DNA of 44,866 nucleotides from a virus (lineage: Duplodnaviria; Heunggongvirae; Uroviricota; Caudoviricetes), in IMG/VR virus record IMGVR_UViG_2579778842_000011, positions 1 to 44,866 of that record; one strand, 5' to 3'. Shown in pieces: positions 6,560 to 44,866 of this stretch. The notes beneath the pieces were generated by a model that had not been told where the DNA came from, ran no database searches, and worked only from the letters and a program-made list of their open reading frames with translations. Within the stretch, counting starts at the first letter, position 1. Every line of letters begins with the position of its first letter. The translations under genes and the position numbers were made by a program.

Positions 6560-6647
6560 TGGCGGTGAGGGGGGGATTCGAACCCCCGATACGTTGCCGT
6601 ATACACACTTTCCAGGCGTGCTCCTTCAGCCACTCGGACACCTCACC
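6560..6647 (-). tRNA. serX: tRNA-Ser (anticodon GGA)
   Basis: Reverse complement reads GGTGAGGTGTCCGAGTGG...CCTGGAAAG...GGTTCGAATCCCCCCCTCACCGCCA: 88 nt, long variable arm, GGA anticodon loop, CCA end; adjacent to ghrA as at the serX locus. Confidence 0.9.
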
Positions 6648-7858: not shown

Positions 7859-8299
<441 letters not shown>

Positions 8300-19626: not shown

Positions 19627-21630
19627 ATGCTTAAATTTCGCCGCGATCTTAACGGTTACGGTGGAGTTATTAACGAAGGGCATAACGATCAATACGAATT
19701 TGAAATTGCTTTCTCAAGTACACAGCCTTATCAGCGCCAATTTTGGGATGAGCAAAATCAAGAAATGGTGGTATTAGATGAAATTCTGGTACATACACCG
19801 GAAGCGGTTGATCTGTCTCGTCTGAATAATAACGCTCCGTTGCTGTTCAATCATAATTTCGATAATCATATTGGTGTCGTTTGTAACGCTCGAATCGATG
19901 CGGATAACGTAGGTCGTGCTCTGGTTAAATTCTCTAAGCATGGCACTTTGGCTAATGATATTCGCAATAAAGTCATTGAAGGTACGATGGAAAAAATATC
20001 GGTCGGCTATGACATTAAAGAGTATCACATCGACTACGCTAAATCGCAACTCATTGTTTCTAAATGGATTCCGCACGAAATTTCGTGGGTCACGGTCCCG
20101 GCGGACGATTCGGTCGGTTTAAATCGCTCTCTAAATACTATCACAGTTAATTTGGGGGCTAAACGCGATATGACTAAAGAACAAATCGAAGAAATCAAAG
20201 AAGAACAAGAATCCGCTCAGGTTGAAGAAACTCCGGTAGAAGAAAATAAAGAACCGGAAGTTGAAGAAACTCAAGAGCGCCAAGTTGAAGAGAATAAAGA
20301 AGATGAAAATCTCGAAGACGGAAAAGACGCTAAACATCCTGAAAGTGTTGATGATGATAGTTCAACTGTTCGGGAAGAAGAAGAAGTAAAAGAAGAACGT
20401 GAAGCCGCTCCGGTTGAAGAAGAAAAAATCGAAGAAGTGGCTGAACGTTCCGAAGAAGACGAATTAGAAATTCGCGAAATTGCACGCGAACTAAATATTG
20501 ATGACTCTGAATTAGCACGCGCATTGGCAATTAAAGACATGACGCCGGAAGCATTCCGCACTAAGGCGCTAAATAACATTACCAATGTTCAACGTAATAA
20601 CGAACAAATTAAGGACTCTAAAATGGAAAAAACTTTCGATCTTAATAACGTAATCCGCTCCCTGGTAGATGGCGACGTGCTCGGCGCTAACGAAGCTGAA
20701 TATTCCGCAATGGCTGCTACTGCAACTATGCAGCGTGGTCGTGCTGCTCGCGGTGGCTCTGTATTCGTTCCGGCTGCTGCTATGCGTGCTGCTTCTGCTG
20801 GTAACACCAAAGCCGACCTGACCGCTATCACTGACGAAAAACTGATGACTGAATCCTACATCGAAATGCTGATGCCGGAATCTGTTCTGGGTCGTCTGGG
20901 TGTGACTGTTTACAGTGGCTTGAACTCCCCGACCGCTATTCCAAAAATGACTAAATCCAGCGTTGACGCTTTCGGCTTCGTTGATGAAAACGGTGCTGCA
21001 CCGGAAAGCAAAGCTGAATTTGCGAACGTGAAACTGTCTCCTAAGACGTTTGCTGGTGGGAACCCGATCAGCAGAGCGAGCCTAAAAACCGTACCCGGCA
21101 TCGCTTCCCTGATCACTGATCACATTAACAAAGCTGTTCGCATCAAACTGGAACAACTGATTCTGTCTGATAAAGCTAACGACCGTGGTCCGGCTGGTCT
21201 GGTTAAGCAACTGGTAGACGCTAACCGCGTTACCAAGAAAGCTGCTTTCTCTTACAAAGACTTCCTGAAAGAAATTGCAGCACTGACCGACGCTGGCGTT
21301 CCTGCTCAGGCGATCAAGTTTGCGATGAGCGGTGCAACTGCTGCTGAACTGGAATCTACCCTGAAAGATAACGGCGTTTCCGGTTATATCATCGAAAACG
21401 GCAAACTGGCTGGTTACGAAGTAGTTACTTCTGGCGTTATTCCGGCAGACCACATCGTTCTGGGTGACTTCTCCGGTATTACCATCGGTGAGTGGGGCGG
21501 TCTGGAACTGGATATGGATCTAACTACATACCGTGACCGTGGTGCGGTAGTGCCTCGTATCTTTGTAGATTTGGACTACGTTGTAGCACAGCCGGAAGCT
21601 CTGAAAGTTCTGAAAATTGGCGAAGAGTGA
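19627..21630 (+). CDS. Prohead protease - acidic linker/scaffold - major capsid protein fusion (HK97-like)
   Basis: 667 aa; N-terminal ~170 aa with prohead-protease-like motifs (LLFNHNFDNHIGVV, ISWVTVPADDS); E/K-rich linker; C-terminal ~330 aa capsid-like; ends at UGA 21628-21630. Confidence 0.7.
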   Translation: MLKFRRDLNGYGGVINEGHNDQYEFEIAFSSTQPYQRQFWDEQNQEMVVLDEILVHTPEAVDLSRLNNNAPLLFNHNFDNHIGVVCNARIDADNVGRALVKFSKHGTLANDIRNKVIEGTMEKISVGYDIKEYHIDYAKSQLIVSKWIPHEISWVTVPADDSVGLNRSLNTITVNLGAKRDMTKEQIEEIKEEQESAQVEETPVEENKEPEVEETQERQVEENKEDENLEDGKDAKHPESVDDDSSTVREEEEVKEEREAAPVEEEKIEEVAERSEEDELEIREIARELNIDDSELARALAIKDMTPEAFRTKALNNITNVQRNNEQIKDSKMEKTFDLNNVIRSLVDGDVLGANEAEYSAMAATATMQRGRAARGGSVFVPAAAMRAASAGNTKADLTAITDEKLMTESYIEMLMPESVLGRLGVTVYSGLNSPTAIPKMTKSSVDAFGFVDENGAAPESKAEFANVKLSPKTFAGGNPISRASLKTVPGIASLITDHINKAVRIKLEQLILSDKANDRGPAGLVKQLVDANRVTKKAAFSYKDFLKEIAALTDAGVPAQAIKFAMSGATAAELESTLKDNGVSGYIIENGKLAGYEVVTSGVIPADHIVLGDFSGITIGEWGGLELDMDLTTYRDRGAVVPRIFVDLDYVVAQPEALKVLKIGEE

Positions 21631-22071: not shown

Positions 22072-22477
22072 TAACATGCCGAGACTGAAAATCAAACGCG
22101 CCTTGCAAGATATTATCGAACAAGATTTAGGTCTGGCTTTAAACGTAGAACAAACTCAGCAAGGCTTTAGTGATGATGTGGTTTGTTGGATCACCGGAAT
22201 GAATGAGACTTACACTAGGGTCCGTGGTGGTAATGCAATGCAAGCTGAATGCGTTATCGAAATGCAATTATATTCTCAGATTCATGAAACCAAAATTCAT
22301 GAGGGTATTTGCCAGATAATCCAGATTCAGCCGGATAACCCACGTTTTAAAGATTTGGGCTTCTCTATTTCAGATATCACTCCAGTAGCTTCTAATACCG
22401 ATTATGACGATGATTCTAGTGATGGGGGTATCGTTGGGACACTTAGCCTTAAATTTTCTTATCTAGCGCGTTTTTAA
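22055..22477 (+). CDS. Putative head-tail joining protein
   Basis: ORF 22007..22477; ATG 22055 has GGGGG 5 nt upstream; overlaps end of previous gene; start uncertain (alternative 22076). Confidence 0.35.
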   Translation: MLATVNNMPRLKIKRALQDIIEQDLGLALNVEQTQQGFSDDVVCWITGMNETYTRVRGGNAMQAECVIEMQLYSQIHETKIHEGICQIIQIQPDNPRFKDLGFSISDITPVASNTDYDDDSSDGGIVGTLSLKFSYLARF

Positions 22478-38093: not shown

Positions 38094-38441
38094 ATGGCTA
38101 AAAATATTTTCACTGAATTTCCTACTTATCCGGTCGATCAGCTTTCCGGTATTTTTATTAATGGCATTAGCCCAGAATCAATGACTTATGATTTTGCGGC
38201 GAAGAGAGTTAAACATAAACAATATAAAGAATGTATCCGCGATCATGAAAAAGGGACCGTGTTTTGTGTCGCTACATTGGCTAAACGTCCTAAATATCGT
38301 TTTCGTGTAGGACAAGAAGTTGATGTGGTTAATCCTTATAGCTTTAACTGTCTGGGCGATGCACGCGCGGTGTGTGTAGGCACTGCTCCTTATTATATCA
38401 AGGGTATGCGCTTTATTGGTTATATCTTCGAAATGATCTAA
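38094..38441 (+). CDS. Hypothetical protein
   Basis: 115 aa ORF in the operon preceding the endolysin. Confidence 0.45.
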   Translation: MAKNIFTEFPTYPVDQLSGIFINGISPESMTYDFAAKRVKHKQYKECIRDHEKGTVFCVATLAKRPKYRFRVGQEVDVVNPYSFNCLGDARAVCVGTAPYYIKGMRFIGYIFEMI

Positions 38442-38450
38442 GGGGGTAAT

Positions 38451-38804
38451 ATGTTAAGCAAACATTTTTCTCGCAAGGAATTTAAATGTAAATGCGGAAA
38501 ATGTGATTATGATACAATCGACGCTGAATTACTGGTAATTCTTGAGGATGTACGAGAGCACTTCGGGAAACCAGTAATTATTAACAGTGGGAACCGTTGC
38601 CCGACTCATAACAAGAATGTAGGCGGTGCAACCAACAGCTATCACGTTCGAGGCCGTGCTGCTGACATTGTGATCAAGGGTGTCTCCCCTGATATTGTCC
38701 ATGCTTATCTTGATGGGAAATATCCTACTCAATACGGCTTAGGCAAATATAAAACCTTTACGCATATCGATTCCAGATCGAAAAAATCACGATGGAATGG
38801 ATAA
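38451..38804 (+). CDS. Endolysin, peptidase M15 family (zinc peptidoglycan peptidase)
   Basis: 117 aa; NSYHVRGRAADI and FTHID motifs (His/Asp zinc ligands). Confidence 0.75.
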   Translation: MLSKHFSRKEFKCKCGKCDYDTIDAELLVILEDVREHFGKPVIINSGNRCPTHNKNVGGATNSYHVRGRAADIVIKGVSPDIVHAYLDGKYPTQYGLGKYKTFTHIDSRSKKSRWNG

Positions 38805-38835: not shown

Positions 38836-40326
38836 TTATATAGCAATGGTTTTAGTTGCATAGCTGAACTTGTCGGTTAGATAATAGCGGATTCTCTCAA
38901 GTGCATGTTTTACCGCATAATTTTTATGCTTGACTTTTCCGTTACGACCGAATATACACAGATGATCTATAAGATCCCAGACCGTTGCAATATCCTTAGA
39001 ACCATGTTTACGCAATGCACGACCGATACTCTGACGAACGATAGTTGATTCCTTCACTGGATGACCGAAAATAACATGGTGCAAATTCTTAATTGAAACA
39101 CCAGTAGAGAACACACCATAGGATGCAACACAAATGATCCCTGTTTCCCCTTCCGCTAATTTCTTAAATTCATCACGTTCTTCTGTCTTAACTCCACCGT
39201 CAATATAATAAACCTTGTCGTGTACCTTCTGTAACGCATCATACATAAGTTTTCCGTGCTTAGTATTGCGGAACATCAGGAATACGTTTTCGCCCTTCTT
39301 AGCGAGTTTTAGCGCCAAATTACAAGCAAACTTATTTCGTCGTGGGTTAGACGTAATATACTTGATCTCTTCCGCATATTCCCGCCCCTTAACCGCGCTA
39401 CATTCCTCATCGGTATAACGAAGGAAAAGGCAGTTAATTTTCAGTTTTGTCACTTGACCTTCTTCCATCAGGCGGTCAATACTCACGATCTTAGAAATAT
39501 CACCGAAAAGCCCGACGTACTGCATTAAATGGCACTTTGATTCTTTCGGGGAACCAGTCATACCGATTTTGAACTGGCAATGATTCATTCCGTTAATGAT
39601 ATTGGTAATATTTTTGGCACTAGCCTTATGTGATTCATCAACTATCAACATTCCATATTGTTTGAACCATTCAGGAGGCATCTTGCAAGCTGATTGCCAG
39701 GTACTAACCGTGATTAACCTGTCTCCCGGATGTTTCCCGCTACCACTCATCATTGTATGAATTGCTTCATAAGGGAATAGCCTATAATCGACAAAATCAT
39801 CCCTCATTTGAACCACCAGCGATGTAGTAGGGACAATGATTAGAACTTTTCCGGTGTAGTTCTCTAAGTACCAACGAGACAGCATACAAGCAATCAATGA
39901 CTTACCCGCACTGGTAGGAAGAACCAGCATTCTACGGCGATTATGAATACCCTGAAAGACTGCCTCCCTTTGATACCAGTAAGGATTGATTTTATTGGAA
40001 CCGGAATACACTTCTAGGGAATCAATCCATTCATTAATCGCGTCTTTGGTTACATCTTCCTTCTCAAGCAATCTGGGGTCAATCCAGACTGAATAGCCCA
40101 TATTTTTAACGAAGACACCCAACGTTTTTAATAGTCCAATTGGTAGGGTGTTTTCATGCGTAAACAGTCTTATTCGTCCATCCCAGCCAGAATACTTGTA
40201 ACGGGGGCTAAACCTAGCCCCTTCAACCTCAAACGAGAAATAATCTCTTAATTCCATTCCGATAGAAGGAGAGCAATCAACCTTAACGAAACTGTAATCT
40301 TGAAAATGAATTTTAATATCTTGCAT
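38836..40326 (-). CDS. SF2 DExH helicase, T4 UvsW-like
   Basis: ATG at 40326 overlapping upstream stop (TAATG); N-terminus MQDIKIHFQDYSFVKVDC and whole length resemble recalled T4 UvsW; motifs LPTSAGKSL, DESH, QSIGRALRKHG. Confidence 0.8.
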   Translation of the reverse strand: MQDIKIHFQDYSFVKVDCSPSIGMELRDYFSFEVEGARFSPRYKYSGWDGRIRLFTHENTLPIGLLKTLGVFVKNMGYSVWIDPRLLEKEDVTKDAINEWIDSLEVYSGSNKINPYWYQREAVFQGIHNRRRMLVLPTSAGKSLIACMLSRWYLENYTGKVLIIVPTTSLVVQMRDDFVDYRLFPYEAIHTMMSGSGKHPGDRLITVSTWQSACKMPPEWFKQYGMLIVDESHKASAKNITNIINGMNHCQFKIGMTGSPKESKCHLMQYVGLFGDISKIVSIDRLMEEGQVTKLKINCLFLRYTDEECSAVKGREYAEEIKYITSNPRRNKFACNLALKLAKKGENVFLMFRNTKHGKLMYDALQKVHDKVYYIDGGVKTEERDEFKKLAEGETGIICVASYGVFSTGVSIKNLHHVIFGHPVKESTIVRQSIGRALRKHGSKDIATVWDLIDHLCIFGRNGKVKHKNYAVKHALERIRYYLTDKFSYATKTIAI

Positions 40327-40895
40327 TAGTTCCACTCCACACTTGCAATATTCTTTATATTGTTTAGTGATTTATTGCAGTAGTGGAATGTTTCAGTTTT
40401 GCCGTATTCAATCCCGCCTATACCCACATCCAGTAATCTCTTTATTGCTCTTTCAGTGGCTAAAGCATGTTTCATTGATGGCATTTCACCAGCAAAGACA
40501 ATATCAAAGTTATGACCGGGATTGCGTACACCCAGATTAATGCGTCGCTTGATGATTGACTTTGTTACACCAAATTTACCAATATCCCCTGATTTCATTA
40601 CATAGAGATAAGGCACACCCGCTTTATATTGAAAGTAATCACTTTTGAGACATGCACAGCGTTTACCTTCATTAAGCAGGTTGGTAGCTGATTTGTCGGC
40701 TCTATTGCCGCATCGGGTACATGTAAGAGCAATTCTTGAATGAAGCCCTTTAAACTCACCCAGAAAGCCATGAAAGACTAATGGTAAGTCCTTATCTTTG
40801 ATGTGAGTCAGAATGCGTTGTTCTAATGCCGATGGAGTTACAGCACGGGAGGATTTAGGAGTAAAAACAATATCTTTAGCCATTACTGGAATCAT
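40326..40895 (-). CDS. Zinc-ribbon + T5orf172/GIY-YIG-like domain protein
   Basis: 189 aa; GAGG RBS; CTRCGN...CAC Cys cluster; YLYVMKSGDIGKFGVTK...R...E pattern. Confidence 0.5.
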   Translation of the reverse strand: MIPVMAKDIVFTPKSSRAVTPSALEQRILTHIKDKDLPLVFHGFLGEFKGLHSRIALTCTRCGNRADKSATNLLNEGKRCACLKSDYFQYKAGVPYLYVMKSGDIGKFGVTKSIIKRRINLGVRNPGHNFDIVFAGEMPSMKHALATERAIKRLLDVGIGGIEYGKTETFHYCNKSLNNIKNIASVEWN

Positions 40896-41017
40896 ATAGA
40901 CCTCACTTTTTTAACTTATAGGCATAACCTCAATATGGTTGGTTTGGGATTTAGGGTCGCGTATTATACACATTCAGATAGAGAATGCAATAGTAAGACA
41001 ATTTTCTCTAATAAATA

Positions 41018-41036
41018 GTAGTGAGCTTATTATTTT
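41018..41036 (+). promoter_or_regulatory. Variant copy of the recurrent 17-mer (TAATAAATAGTAGTGAGC) upstream of gene 41050
   Basis: Similarity to the copies at 9204, 11159 and 12437. Confidence 0.3.
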
Positions 41037-41049
41037 AGAGGAAACTACT

Positions 41050-42225
41050 ATGAAACTTGCTTACGCTGCCGAAATTCCTTTTGTTAAGAAAACTCGCGGT
41101 TTATCACCGGAAGAGTACCAACAACGAATCATCGCTAAACTGGAACCTGCTTTCGTATTTGGTGGATTTATCCTACCGTGGAAGGGTAATCACACTTACT
41201 TTCGAATCTACAATTTAGACACACAAGAATATAAGGACTACAAATTACGCAAACTGGAAGATACTAACGGGGGTGAGTTATTCCAGACTGAAAAGGCTGT
41301 ATGGTTGAAAATGGAATCTCGTTGTAATGAGAAGGGAAAGAAATTCCTCGGATGGCAAGGAGAATGGAAAGGGCGAAATAGAACGAAAGCCCGTGTTTTG
41401 TGCCCTGAACACAATCAAATCATGACGCCATCTCTATTACATGCTCTCAAAGATGATTTCGATTTTGATTGCAAAATCTGTATGGCTGAAAAATCCCAAC
41501 GGGTAAGAAGTGGCAAGACTTTTGATGAAGTTATTAAGGACAAAGAGACAATCATCAATGCACGTTGCGAGAGTACGCCTTACACCTTCAAAGGATTCAT
41601 CATAAACACCCCACACCTAAAGGATGTTAAATTTAAAACCTATTGCAAGACACATAACCACGAATGGGAATCTCATTTAAGATGTGCTGATTCTTTCACT
41701 TGTCCGCTTTGCATTAAAGACCAACTGGTGCAACTGTCTAACCGGACTTATCAGGGTAAGGCTAGTTTCTACATTCAATTATTAGATGACAAATTTATTA
41801 AATTTGGAATCACTACCCGGAAACCAGAAGAACGAATGAGAGAGCAAACCAGAAAGAGCAACTTCACTCACCGCTTAATCTTTACTCATGAGTTTGAGGA
41901 TGGTTGGAAAGCCGTTGATTTAGAGCATGAAGTAAAACAACGCTTCAAGACTCATGCAGCACCCTACAAAGATTTCAAGGATGGATGGTCGGAAACTCTG
42001 ACTATTGATGAGTTACCACACTTACAGCAACTGGTTTATGACTACCTAACCAATCAACCGGACGAGGCTAATATGTGGGTATCCCCGAAAGATGTATTTG
42101 ATGACGATACATTCAAGCTACATACTCACTTCTACGGCATCAATAAACCGGAATTTTTCTGTATTGATGACGACAGTCCTGATTTAATGGATGAATACTT
42201 TAATACGCTCTTAGACGCTGCCTAA
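41050..42225 (+). CDS. Paralogous protein with two Cys/His zinc-ribbon modules and C-terminal T5orf172/GIY-YIG-like domain
   Basis: ATG 41050 after AGAGGA (track ORF begins upstream without RBS); CPEHN...CKIC and CKTHNHEW...CPLC; FYIQLLDDKFIKFGITTRK. Confidence 0.45.
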   Translation: MKLAYAAEIPFVKKTRGLSPEEYQQRIIAKLEPAFVFGGFILPWKGNHTYFRIYNLDTQEYKDYKLRKLEDTNGGELFQTEKAVWLKMESRCNEKGKKFLGWQGEWKGRNRTKARVLCPEHNQIMTPSLLHALKDDFDFDCKICMAEKSQRVRSGKTFDEVIKDKETIINARCESTPYTFKGFIINTPHLKDVKFKTYCKTHNHEWESHLRCADSFTCPLCIKDQLVQLSNRTYQGKASFYIQLLDDKFIKFGITTRKPEERMREQTRKSNFTHRLIFTHEFEDGWKAVDLEHEVKQRFKTHAAPYKDFKDGWSETLTIDELPHLQQLVYDYLTNQPDEANMWVSPKDVFDDDTFKLHTHFYGINKPEFFCIDDDSPDLMDEYFNTLLDAA

Positions 42226-42242
42226 CGCAATTAAATTAAAAA

Positions 42243-42271
42243 GGGGTACATCTGTACCCCTTAACTGTTTT
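42243..42271. terminator. Hairpin terminator between convergent genes
   Basis: GGGGTACA-TC-TGTACCCC inverted repeat flanked by A-run and T-rich tail. Confidence 0.5.
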
Positions 42272-42298
42272 AGCTCGTTATACGTCGATTTAGGCCGC

Positions 42299-43978
42299 TT
42301 AAATTCCAAATTCCTGTAATGGACCTGGTATTTCCTCTTCTGGTTTCCAGTTCTTATCTGTCAGCATGTCTAAACATGGATGCAGAACAAGCCCGTTACT
42401 CTCCAGAATCTGCCTATCATTGATAGTTTTCAAATCGACAAAGATTTGTCCTTTCCTCGTTCCTCTTGAATTTTCTATTACAACTCTCTGGGTCTTTCCA
42501 TCGATGTATTCCAGTACAAACAAGTTTTTGTTTCTGTCAATCCTGCTACACCCGATCCGCTTTAGAGCTTGCTTAATCTTAAACCGGACCTTTAGTCGTT
42601 CCTCGTTGTAAACATCTTCTAAATCAAATTCTGCGAGCTTCTCCCAGCCTTGAGAGTCAACAGAATACATTTCCTCTTCTGCCATCTTGATCTGATTGTA
42701 GAGTGTTTCACGCTCGCTATTGAGGGTAGTAATCTGATCGGCTAGCTCCTTCGTTGCTCCTGTCATAGCAGAAAGGGCAATCAGGTTATCAATCTTGCGT
42801 GATATCTCATCAACCTGTACTTTTAAAGCCGGAACCGGATTAGCCTTGTCCTCAGCAATCCAGATTTTATCAGCCAGCAATTGCAATACAGCTTTCTCTA
42901 ATTGATCACCTCGAAAACTCCAGTTTGGATGCTCGCAATCAAGTCTACGTGAACGGGTCGCATCACATGTATAACGATACTGGTCAGAACGTTTGTTCGT
43001 TCCCTTCACTTTAACCATAGCGCAACCGCAATGATCACATTTCAATAGGCCAATACCACTAAGCAGGGGGATCGGTTTAACTTCTTCCTTGTCTCCAAAG
43101 TTCCATGCTCTAGCACCAATATTTTTCTTAAGGTGATAGAACGTAGGGTCATCAATAACACGAGGGTAATAATCCTTTAACTCATAGTTAACGCCATCTA
43201 CAGAGACCTCCTTGATACCAATCAAAGCGCGGGTATGAAACAACCTTTCAACCATTGCCCGTGACCATTTTGAATGCTTCTTGTTGCTAACCGCTGGTGG
43301 CGGTGTATAAGTCTCGTTAAGGTGATCCAGTATCTCGGCGGTTGAACGTCCATTCTTCCGTAATTCCACAATCTCCTGAACAACAGGGAAGTACACCGGA
43401 TGAGGCAGCACATAACCGGAAGTGGTATCAGTCCACCACATATTCTTTCCAACTTCCTCGATTGCCACTGCCGGATTCTGGGGATTTTCTTGATGCGACT
43501 TAATCTTAATCAGTGCGCTTGAGTTAGTACGATTGCGCTTAGTCTGACTTTCCTCATTACCACGGATGAATAGAAGGATGGAGAACATCAGGTCCATCGG
43601 ATTAGCGGTAACAGTATCCAGCGAGTAGATCTTGTTATCCATGCCAGTAACAATGGTTATTCCCCTACGGATGATTGAAAGGAATAACTCCTGCGCACTG
43701 ACAATATCGGCACGGGATAAGCGGTCCAAGTTTTCAATGAATAGCCAGCTACCAACAGGAACGGATCTACCAATTGCATCAAGGAAACGAGATAGCGCCC
43801 CTGTTTTAGAGTTAGCACCTTTAAACGCAGATACACCCAGATCCTGATAATCATTTACCAGTTCAAGGTCATACTTTGCCGCAATCTCTCTCGCCATCCT
43901 GATTTGTCGTTCATAACTCGAACCATCACTCTGACGCATAGACGAGAAGCGAATATACGAATACAGTTTAGTTTTCAT
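42299..43978 (-). CDS. Large serine recombinase (phage integrase of the serine family)
   Basis: ATG at 43978 (track start 43993 is TTG); N-terminal YSYIRFSSMRQSDGSSYERQ resolvase catalytic motif, ENLDRLSR, Cys-rich zinc ribbon CDHCGC...CDATRSRRLDCEH, coiled coil. Confidence 0.85.
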   Translation of the reverse strand: MKTKLYSYIRFSSMRQSDGSSYERQIRMAREIAAKYDLELVNDYQDLGVSAFKGANSKTGALSRFLDAIGRSVPVGSWLFIENLDRLSRADIVSAQELFLSIIRRGITIVTGMDNKIYSLDTVTANPMDLMFSILLFIRGNEESQTKRNRTNSSALIKIKSHQENPQNPAVAIEEVGKNMWWTDTTSGYVLPHPVYFPVVQEIVELRKNGRSTAEILDHLNETYTPPPAVSNKKHSKWSRAMVERLFHTRALIGIKEVSVDGVNYELKDYYPRVIDDPTFYHLKKNIGARAWNFGDKEEVKPIPLLSGIGLLKCDHCGCAMVKVKGTNKRSDQYRYTCDATRSRRLDCEHPNWSFRGDQLEKAVLQLLADKIWIAEDKANPVPALKVQVDEISRKIDNLIALSAMTGATKELADQITTLNSERETLYNQIKMAEEEMYSVDSQGWEKLAEFDLEDVYNEERLKVRFKIKQALKRIGCSRIDRNKNLFVLEYIDGKTQRVVIENSRGTRKGQIFVDLKTINDRQILESNGLVLHPCLDMLTDKNWKPEEEIPGPLQEFGI

Positions 43979-44043
43979 ACCATTTCCAAACAAAAACGCC
44001 CCTACCGTGTATTATAACGATAGGGGCATTGGTTAGTAAGTCA

Positions 44044-44289
44044 TTAATATTTCTTTCCAGTTAGTTTTGCATCACGTTTATTAATATCCTCGATATGACT
44101 CCATACACACGCAGTAATAAAGTCGTCATCGTCACCAACTCCGGCAACCTGTGCTAATTCAGTACACAGTTGATTTAAAGAAGGTGCAACGGCAGCACGT
44201 TTGACACTATCACCCTGTACATATTGTTCGGCATTTGCAGCACCAACCAAACCCAGAGCAAGAACAACACCAGCGATAATCTTTTTCAT
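44044..44289 (-). CDS. Small secreted protein (moron candidate)
   Basis: 81 aa; AGAGGA RBS; signal-peptide-like MKKIIAGVVLALGLVGAANA followed by A-E; two Cys. Confidence 0.5.
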   Translation of the reverse strand: MKKIIAGVVLALGLVGAANAEQYVQGDSVKRAAVAPSLNQLCTELAQVAGVGDDDDFITACVWSHIEDINKRDAKLTGKKY

Positions 44290-44334
44290 AGTAGAATTTC
44301 CTCTTGTTATTTGAATTACGATATATTTATATCA

Positions 44335-44460
44335 TTAAAAATTGATGCTAATTACCAGACCAAACACAACCGCACCAATCAAATCAATCCAGTTAATACA
44401 CAATCCGCTATATTCTTTCTTGAATGTCTTAGATGAAATGCCATCATGAAATTGTTTCAT
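44335..44460 (-). CDS. Small hydrophobic peptide (41 aa), absent from the ORF track
   Basis: MKQFHDGISSKTFKKEYSGLCINWIDLIGAVVFGLVISINF; GGGGTGAG 5 nt upstream of ATG; C-terminal hydrophobic helix. Confidence 0.3.
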   Translation of the reverse strand: MKQFHDGISSKTFKKEYSGLCINWIDLIGAVVFGLVISINF

Positions 44461-44596
44461 TGCTCACCCCATACTAACGACAATATAAGAAAGACTAATC
44501 ATGGTTGTGAGACTACCTCCCACGAATGAGATAAAAGCTAACATGTTTGATTCTCCATTTAAAAAGCGGTGGGAATTGCACCCACCAAATTAGAAA

Positions 44597-44866
44597 TTAC
44601 TTCTTGCTAATAAACTCTTTGTAGATAAAATCTAAGACTTCCTTTAACTTCTTATCGGTGCCAATCATCGCCGGAAGTTCTTCTTTAATATCGCGAGGAA
44701 GATACACATTACCTTTCCAGAACAAGCAACCACATTGAGCAATCGAATAGCTGAACATCCATTCACAATCTTGTTCTATCTCCCAGAATCTAACCTGCTC
44801 ATCTTCGAGTTGAAGTTCGATTCCACGGCGGCGAGCATAGTTATGGATTGCTTTGGTAATGTTCAT
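44597..44866 (-). CDS. Hypothetical protein; start coincides with the window edge, so may be 5' truncated
   Basis: 89 aa ORF, AT-rich phage-like composition. Confidence 0.4.
   Translation of the reverse strand: MNITKAIHNYARRRGIELQLEDEQVRFWEIEQDCEWMFSYSIAQCGCLFWKGNVYLPRDIKEELPAMIGTDKKLKEVLDFIYKEFISKK

Follow-up and report, generated by a model that had tools for sequence, protein, structure and literature searches.

The right end of an uncharacterised Escherichia coli prophage raises the question of what a run of very small genes is doing between the attachment site and the integrase gene. The prophage lies on IMG/VR virus record IMGVR_UViG_2579778842_000011, of which the whole stretch of 44,866 nucleotides (nt) was analysed (the window). 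A preliminary description of this DNA had pointed to two small open reading frames (ORFs) beside the integrase, one for a secreted protein of 81 amino acids (aa) and one for a 41-aa hydrophobic peptide, and had suggested a moron-like role in superinfection exclusion or lysogenic conversion. Both ORFs were found on the minus strand, next to the integrase of a real prophage, a 559-aa large serine recombinase. Read in the minus-strand direction, the window contains genes for a 26-aa peptide, the 41-aa peptide and the 81-aa putatively exported protein, followed by a strong terminator and the integrase gene. The two membrane peptides are a conserved core that is present in every relative examined, and the 81-aa protein is exchangeable cargo.

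The gene for the 41-aa peptide (44335..44460, minus strand) encodes MKQFHDGISSKTFKKEYSGLCINWIDLIGAVVFGLVISINF, a predicted tail-anchored membrane peptide. Its N-terminal half is basic and its hydrophobic C-terminal segment covers approximately residues 20-41 (best window 2.51), the helix ending in SIN(F/I). Upstream of the ATG is GGGGTGAG, in agreement with the GGTGA stretch of the anti-16S consensus. Both the Shine-Dalgarno (SD) sequence and the transmembrane-like helix reported in the preliminary description are present. We compared 50 loci containing the start of this gene, drawn from the window, 11 stretches of complete E. coli genomes, 25 IMG/VR contigs, 10 metagenome contigs and five Logan/NCBI contigs obtained by protein look-up, three of which carry cargo proteins that NCBI assigns to Salmonella enterica. 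The 40/41-aa ORF was intact in all 49 loci not cut by a contig end. The family comprises 12 members with identities down to 63% (Salmonella included), and the only variation in length, between 40 and 41 aa, comes from a 3-nt indel that keeps the frame. Fifteen of 22 polymorphic sites fall at the third codon position, and pairs of nonsynonymous and synonymous rates (dN/dS) were 0.03/0.31 and 0.28/0.99 (ratio 0.1-0.3). The first 15 residues, MKQFHDGISSKTFKK, are predicted to be cytoplasmic. Thirteen of them are invariant, and positions 3 and 6 differ (Q3P, D6Q) only in one Salmonella locus, L040. Synonymous changes do occur within this stretch and therefore the constraint is on the protein, not on the DNA. 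Small ORFs are abundant here (45 of at least 25 aa overlap this AT-rich 3.9 kb), so that size alone is no proof of a gene; it is conservation that shows the genes to be real. The 41-aa and 81-aa ORFs are real genes under purifying selection. Annotation by the Prokaryotic Genome Annotation Pipeline (PGAP) included the 41-aa gene in 2 of the 11 complete E. coli genome records and the 26-aa gene in none. Species-representative genomes yielded no match, whether by DNA pattern or by back-translated peptide.

The 26-aa peptide, which had been missed in the preliminary description, is encoded immediately upstream (44464..44544, minus strand) and was recognised as an ORF with homologues in diverged prophages. 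Its sequence, MLAFISFVGGSLTTMISLSYIVVSMG, contains no charged residue and has a grand average of hydropathy (GRAVY) of 1.64. An SD sequence, GGAG, lies 8 nt 5′ of the ATG. The TGA stop codon is embedded in the SD of the 41-aa gene and ends 3 nt ahead of the 41-aa ATG, which suggests translational coupling. Homologues (MSVLISFAASTLLTIISFVYLVVNAV, MAALLSFASAVVITILSYVYVVVSAV and MSLLLSFVGSTVLTISGFVYMVVNAV) occur in diverged E. coli and Salmonella prophages, where they often share ATGA start/stop overlaps with their neighbours (L013, L014 and L042). In two loci, L009 and L018, an unrelated, equally hydrophobic ORF of 25-29 aa occupies the same place. Moreover, on one metagenome contig of 747 nt from ENA (P0022) a change of TGA to TGG joins the 26- and 40-aa ORFs into a 68-aa protein with two predicted helices, which could be a natural fusion or a sequencing error. 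If such a fusion is functional, the first helix would have its N-terminus outside, the basic loop would be cytoplasmic and the second helix would have its C-terminus outside.

The gene for the 81-aa protein (44044..44289, minus strand; assigned from the ORF, its homologues and dN/dS) is preceded by the SD sequence GAGGA, 9 nt 5′ of its ATG. The protein begins with MKKIIAGVVLALGLVGAANA, followed by the predicted cleavage point and EQYVQ. This signal peptide, residues 1-20 (44230-44289), has a basic n-region MKK, a 13-residue hydrophobic core IIAGVVLALGLVG and then AANA|E, with A-N-A at positions -3 to -1. The hydropathy maximum of 2.60 lies at residues 4-18 (15-residue Kyte-Doolittle window). 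The +1 residue is not cysteine and there is no lipobox, so the protein is not a lipoprotein. As far as can be read from sequence and hydropathy, it is thus predicted to be a substrate of Sec export and signal peptidase I, and the preliminary description's cleavable signal peptide and two cysteines are borne out. The cysteines, at positions 42 and 61, are invariant among homologues. Thirteen homologues have identities of 74-98%. The homologous clusters number 12, all from E. coli where the source names an organism, and there are two allelic groups that are ~77% identical to each other. Across the gene dN is 0.13 and dS 0.45 (dN/dS 0.30). The segment between the cysteines (AQVAGVGDDDDF versus ANLAGQPNDEEL) is the most divergent, with a dN of 0.39 against 0.02 in the N-terminal part of the mature protein. 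AlphaFold2 models the 61-aa mature part as a two-helix hairpin (helices 28-49 and 55-77), with a predicted local distance difference test score (pLDDT) of 78-93 in the helices. In this model Cys42 and Cys61 sit on separate helices, which would allow a disulfide staple. A profile search against 1.84 billion representatives returned one full-length cluster, the remainder being signal-peptide fragments and one weak match to a repeat protein, and a PDB sequence search gave only a spurious repeat-protein match. Nor did a fold search of the model against BFVD and PDB give any match below E 1.9, as is expected for a two-helix hairpin.

Comparison of the relatives shows how these genes are arranged. 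From the attachment (att) junction inwards the common order is one to three small genes of cytoplasmic type (phrog_6147, phrog_14908, phrog_16283), the 26-aa gene, the 40/41-aa gene, a variable slot, the terminator and the integrase gene. The slot holds the 81-aa gene in 20 loci. In another 20, Salmonella included, it holds a gene for a 132-139-aa protein predicted to be a beta-barrel, which opens with the signal peptide of the 81-aa protein, MKKIIAGVVLALGLVGAANA, but differs entirely after it. Elsewhere the slot contains the 81-aa gene along with one for a membrane-anchored coiled-coil protein of 113 aa, a gene for a lipoprotein of 130 aa (lipobox LAGC), a CapR/T5orf172 homing-endonuclease-like gene of 348 aa, insertion sequence elements, or nothing. 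No cargo follows the 40/41-aa gene in L013 and L018, and two further loci have the homing-endonuclease-like gene alone in the slot. In L013 a different secreted protein with two cysteines, of 75 aa, is encoded between the two peptide genes; BLASTP gave no alignment between it and the 81-aa protein. All cargoes with an export signal are candidate envelope proteins (the 81-aa hairpin, the 132-139-aa barrel, the 130-aa lipoprotein, the 113-aa coiled coil and the 75-aa protein of L013). The junction at which cargoes are swapped lies in or just after the shared signal peptide, and cargo types are found in shuffled combinations with integrase types and insertion sites. An inverted repeat, CGATATA-AA-TATATCG (44319..44334; 7 bp, with one mismatch in the window), was seen in the alignment of related loci. 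It immediately follows the stop codon of the 41-aa gene, at the left boundary of the variable slot and within the spacer of 45 nt that leads to the cargo gene, and is conserved across cargo types. Its folding is not significant (z = -0.5), and it may be an operator or a recombination boundary of the cargo slot.

These comparisons separate the two ORFs that had both been called moron-like. For the 81-aa gene the term is partly apt, on two counts out of four, as it is exchanged or absent among relatives and has its own terminator downstream. However, G+C is not distinct (0.34-0.40 across 43800-44866 versus 0.36-0.48 in the neighbouring 10 kb, with no step), and a scan for a promoter of its own gave nothing convincing, with no promoter-like site in the 45-nt spacer. 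The 41-aa gene does not fit the term; it is a core gene in all relatives examined and is paired with a tiny hydrophobic ORF.

The cassette is divided from the integrase gene by an intrinsic terminator 3′ of the 81-aa gene (43995..44030, minus strand), with a 14-bp stem and a T-tract (-23.4 kcal/mol, z = -4.7, 0/200 shuffles as stable). The hairpin, GCCCCTATCG..CGGTAGGGGC, is found in 33/40 loci, the diverged L013 and L042 among them. Its loop contains a perfect TATAAT, kept even in these two, although the -35 matches for it are weak (3-4/6). This TATAAT might start transcription of the integrase gene. With a -10 element in the loop, transcripts would begin within the 3′ arm and escape termination, and the integrase gene would be insulated from upstream transcription yet have its own start. 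The integrase gene itself (42299..43978, minus strand; 559 aa from the ATG at 43978) is the last in the minus-strand direction. Its product matches Pfam Recombinase and Zn_ribbon_recom and phrog_95 (E=2e-63), and is labelled by PGAP 'recombinase family protein' in 57 E. coli genomes. A weaker hairpin with a T-tract (44567..44587, minus strand; -12.5 kcal/mol, z = -1.9) lies between the 26-aa gene and an 89-aa gene upstream of it. This hairpin is kept wherever the 26-aa gene comes after an 89-aa-type or 128-aa-type gene and is absent in L013 and L042, in which the start codon of the 26-aa gene and the preceding stop codon overlap as ATGA. It represents a partial terminator or else a stem-loop at the 5′ end of the cassette transcript.

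The prophage is ~36.6 kb long and interrupts ycdX, running from ~8275 to ~44 nt past the window end; the window thus stops ~44 nt before the right prophage junction. Megablast of window 42200-44866 found no match among 50,697 phage records, and the same DNA was matched at 80-99% identity on the chromosomes of 57/5,426 complete E. coli genomes. The match in E. coli BS74R-D falls at the right end of a prophage in ycdX, beside ycdY, ycdZ and csg. Comparison of attL (~window 8262-8280), attR (L003 14690-14720) and an intact ycdX left only AATCC common to all three, which fits the expectation for a serine integrase. Sister prophages are inserted in hicB, and their integrase is ~75% identical to the ycdX type over the N-terminal 150 residues (estimated by eye). 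Approximately 45 nt on the phage side of the crossover (AATATCATGTACCCACAATAACACGAG..) are conserved between the two types. A circular (attP) form was not seen; all metagenome contigs with upstream flank that were checked were integrated. A literature search turned up no paper describing a serine-recombinase prophage in ycdX.

What, then, might this cassette do? The proteins are new families of a familiar kind, phage accessory envelope microproteins. From their location and type, and by analogy with T4 Imm and Sp and other small envelope exclusion proteins (PMC11436027, PMC10883804), we tentatively suggest that the cassette excludes incoming phages at the level of the envelope, a reading that we regard as the best supported of those considered, yet as possible rather than probable. 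T4 Imm and Sp form a phage-encoded superinfection-exclusion pair that acts at the envelope (PMC11436027). Going by the translated sequences, Imm has 83 aa and is very hydrophobic, and Sp has 97 aa, is Sec-exported and has two cysteines and the signal peptide MKKFIFATIFALASCAAQPAMA. Both systems would thus combine a small inner-membrane part with a small Sec-exported periplasmic protein with two cysteines. They differ in that the cassette has its membrane part divided between two peptides (26 and 41 aa), an exported part that can be exchanged and three adjoining genes, whereas the two T4 genes are unlinked. A second comparison is with morons and other genes at prophage ends, such as those for the Cor lipoprotein of phi80 and N15 and SieA of P22, which block the receptor or DNA entry (PMC11436027, PMC10883804). 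These too are non-structural small envelope proteins of temperate phages, and the 81-aa gene resembles them in being present or absent among related phages and in the terminator downstream. Unlike morons, the cassette has no promoter of its own that we could find and no atypical G+C, its 26- and 41-aa genes are core, and it has no homology to Cor or SieA (no PHROG match of known function). We take HK97 gp15 to be a further envelope protein of this prophage-end kind.

For exclusion, the parts could work together as follows. The 26-aa and 41-aa peptides would be inserted next to each other into the inner membrane and form a unit of two helices, the 41-aa peptide with its basic N-terminus in the cytoplasm, one transmembrane helix and its C-terminus outside. 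For the 81-aa protein, Sec export and cleavage after ANA would be followed by oxidation in the periplasm, giving a helical hairpin held by a disulfide staple. Binding would take place at the acidic loop of this hairpin (VGDDDD / QPNDEE), the most variable one. The membrane pair would then stay constant, and target specificity would come from the exchangeable exported protein. Stated in full, the proposal is that the 26- and 41-aa peptides are a constant inner-membrane platform into which exported proteins (helical hairpin, beta-barrel, related lipoprotein) are plugged by recombination at the shared signal peptide, as a modular and previously undescribed exclusion or entry-control system that integration might switch off, since attP lies in the leader. 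This fuller version is doubtful.

In favour of exclusion we count the purifying selection on the genes, the coupled arrangement of the two peptide genes and their joined frame in P0022, the envelope character of all cargoes with an export signal, the shuffling of cargo types, the divergence of the 81-aa protein between its cysteines, and the size, Sec signal and two cysteines of T4 Sp. Several results weigh against exclusion as the function. The 81-, 41- and 26-aa proteins have no significant match in Pfam, PHROGs, NCBIfam or PADLOC. The best PHROG results were three matches to signal peptides (E 0.06-0.16), and with PADLOC the 81-, 41-, 26- and 89-aa proteins matched no family at E <= 5. Alignment of the 81-aa protein with T4 Sp by hhalign had a probability of 8.6% over 16 aligned columns, all in the signal peptide, and BLASTP of the fused 26- and 41-aa sequences against T4 Imm gave no alignment at E <= 100. 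For the 81-aa protein, the AlphaFold2 model comes from a shallow alignment (13 sequences) with a mean pLDDT of 68.8, and Foldseek found no match to it in PDB with E below 3.6. In addition, consensus scans of 43800-44866, the left prophage end and the reconstructed attP gave no convincing sigma-70 promoter for the cassette. The only 9/12 promoter-like site, 44511-44482, is inside the 26-aa ORF and its -10 varies with an I/L codon; three promoter-like sites were found against 3.4 expected from shuffles. An internal or non-consensus promoter is possible. Lastly, upstream genes of the operon have homologues in the early regions of virulent phages, and the cassette may have a different part to play in lytic growth.

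This last point leads to the rival that survives best, in which the cassette belongs to an early or establishment operon, active solely on the circular genome, and alters host membrane physiology (transport, division, proteolysis, membrane potential) for replication or for the decision between lysis and lysogeny. The first gene of the operon is the 89-aa gene (44597..44866, minus strand; phrog_6147, E=1.2e-31), whose ATG is at the window end, ~45 nt from the att crossover. Its homologues, at ~56% identity, occur in 420 phage records, rV5-like, Klebsiella and Campylobacter phages among them, and in the one context examined, phAPEC8 (L043, 1829-2113), phrog_6147 lies in the early region, as an early gene of virulent phAPEC8-like phages. 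The crossover (core AATCC) is so close to the first ATG that integration severs the operon from anything upstream, and the ~45 nt of phage DNA between them leave no room for a wholly phage-borne promoter of the first gene in the prophage state. The same layout is seen at two unrelated insertion sites, ycdX and hicB. Taken together, an attachment site in the 5′ leader, the lack of a promoter and the early-gene family make constitutive expression in the lysogen doubtful, and we favour expression, together with Int, from the circular infecting or excised genome as more likely. The lysogen-expressed role that lysogenic conversion needs is accordingly not supported by the operon layout. An establishment function would also suit an integrase gene at the end of the operon, needed right after infection, and two peptides that are core and not optional; moreover, a fixed partner inside the cell is suggested by the near-invariance of the 41-aa peptide at its cytoplasmic N-terminus. 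However, the P-arm side of the reconstructed attP likewise yielded no promoter, and the free exchange of the exported part among close relatives looks more like an arms race than housekeeping. An early operon is also compatible with exclusion, imm and sp of T4 being themselves genes of a virulent phage. We consider an establishment role of this kind a possibility, though an unlikely one. A recombination directionality factor was also considered for the small genes and rejected, as two of the products are membrane peptides and one is exported.

Control of lysis timing would have the peptides and the periplasmic protein modulate a holin or spanin in an antiholin-like manner (cf. T4 RI). Small membrane and periplasmic proteins would be the expected parts, and the 113-aa coiled-coil protein in the slot of some relatives has a weak Rz-like spanin match (phrog_739, E=0.0024). 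The two-helix periplasmic domain predicted for the 81-aa protein is presumably of the same general type as antiholin RI. We nevertheless think this improbable, because the 26-, 41- and 81-aa proteins match no lysis family in PHROGs, and the phage's endolysin and holin-like genes are elsewhere, at 36870-38804 and on the opposite strand to the cassette. The M15 endolysin gene (38451-38804) is separated from the cassette by the integrase gene, and a 56-aa holin-like gene and a 103-aa membrane-anchored coiled-coil ORF sit upstream of it. The four loci that have no cargo, or only a homing-endonuclease-like gene, after the 40/41-aa gene also speak against a lysis function.

There is a comparably small chance that the peptides are membrane-damaging toxins, either in an addiction module of the type I toxin-antitoxin kind or as abortive-infection effectors. 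In size and composition they resemble Ibs, ShoB, TisB and Hok-type peptides, above all the uncharged 26-aa one, and a prophage end is a fitting place. Like these toxins, and like the regulators AcrZ and MgrB, they have 26-41 aa and a single predicted transmembrane helix and are largely missed by annotation. They differ in being phage-borne and in an operon with an exported protein, and no NCBIfam small-protein model matches them. No antisense RNA partner was found either, with no plus-strand promoter-like site in 44290-44600 and no significant small RNA (sRNA) in Rfam (best E 0.07, below the gathering score), although a novel sRNA is possible. Whereas type I toxins are tightly repressed, these genes have normal SD sequences and are co-oriented and probably translationally coupled. 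The joined reading frame of P0022, if a natural fusion of both peptides, would count against toxicity as well.

It is very unlikely that the 81-aa protein is a lysogenic-conversion factor that aids the bacterium outside phage conflict, for instance in envelope stress, resistance to host lysozyme or colonisation. Such a role is suggested by a small exported protein with a predicted disulfide at a prophage end, by the presence of the prophage in human and livestock E. coli and in Salmonella, and by the weak resemblance of the alternative 132-139-aa cargo, though not of the 81-aa protein, to lysozyme-inhibitor barrels of the periplasmic MliC/PliC type. However, integration splits the operon, and Pfam, NCBIfam and PDB sequence searches revealed no similarity to a known virulence or fitness factor. 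Finally, despite the many ORFs in this AT-rich DNA and a 41-aa ORF mostly, and a 26-aa ORF always, unannotated by PGAP in the records examined, the idea that the small ORFs are chance frames in a non-coding integrase leader is effectively refuted by intact reading frames in every complete locus, third-position bias, dN/dS well below 1, the in-frame indel, replacement of the tiny ORF by another hydrophobic ORF in L009 and L018, and Salmonella members at 63% identity. Both small ORFs of the preliminary description are genuine genes, and their sequences are consistent with its view of them as small envelope proteins.

The remainder of the window bears on the phage as a whole. The prophage is temperate and siphovirus-like, with lambda-like terminase and tail genes, and belongs to a lineage without a close cultured relative (integrase <=31% and major capsid protein <=45% identical within the phage collection). 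The major capsid family protein (window 19627-21630) has 667 aa, roughly double the usual length; its closest match is at 45% to Escherichia phage DCP80, the remaining matches listed being at 27-30%. It may be a fused protease/scaffold-capsid protein of an unstudied lineage. Among the structural genes, on the strand opposite to the surrounding ORFs, ARAGORN called a tRNA-Gln(ttg) of 91 nt (22242-22332, minus strand), which may be a false positive given its unusual length. Window 1 to ~8274 is host DNA, namely a CP4-like island (an Ag43-like autotransporter C-terminus, DUF932, antirestriction, JAB/RadC-like and CbeA/CbtA-type toxin-antitoxin genes) followed by host genes, which include tRNA-Ser (6560-6647), ghrA and the 5′ fragment of ycdX. 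Between the endolysin and integrase genes lies a block (38836-42225) with a 499-aa UvsW-type helicase, 81-82% identical to UvsW of RB49-like T4-type phages, and CapR/T5orf172 (GIY-YIG-like) nuclease genes on both sides. The block is absent in some relatives, such that in L005 and L012 the endolysin gene adjoins the integrase gene; the Salmonella relatives have it, and L040 has a UvsY gene in addition. The block resembles a module for recombination that virulent phages also have, and homing endonucleases may have moved it. The helicase, 81% identical to that of RB49, prompted us to consider a T4-like lytic phage, which was rejected given an integrated prophage of this size, its lambda-like terminase and tail genes and a helicase block that is an insertion.

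In summary, proteins of 26-81 aa are systematically missed by annotation, and here two microproteins are conserved across ~50 prophage loci in two genera and are tied to a slot in which exported proteins are exchanged downstream of a shared signal peptide. Should the cassette block phage entry, we would have a compact, modular exclusion system of relevance to host range in phage therapy of E. coli and Salmonella. If instead it has an establishment-phase function that is silenced by integration, it would be an example of gene control through the placement of an attachment site.

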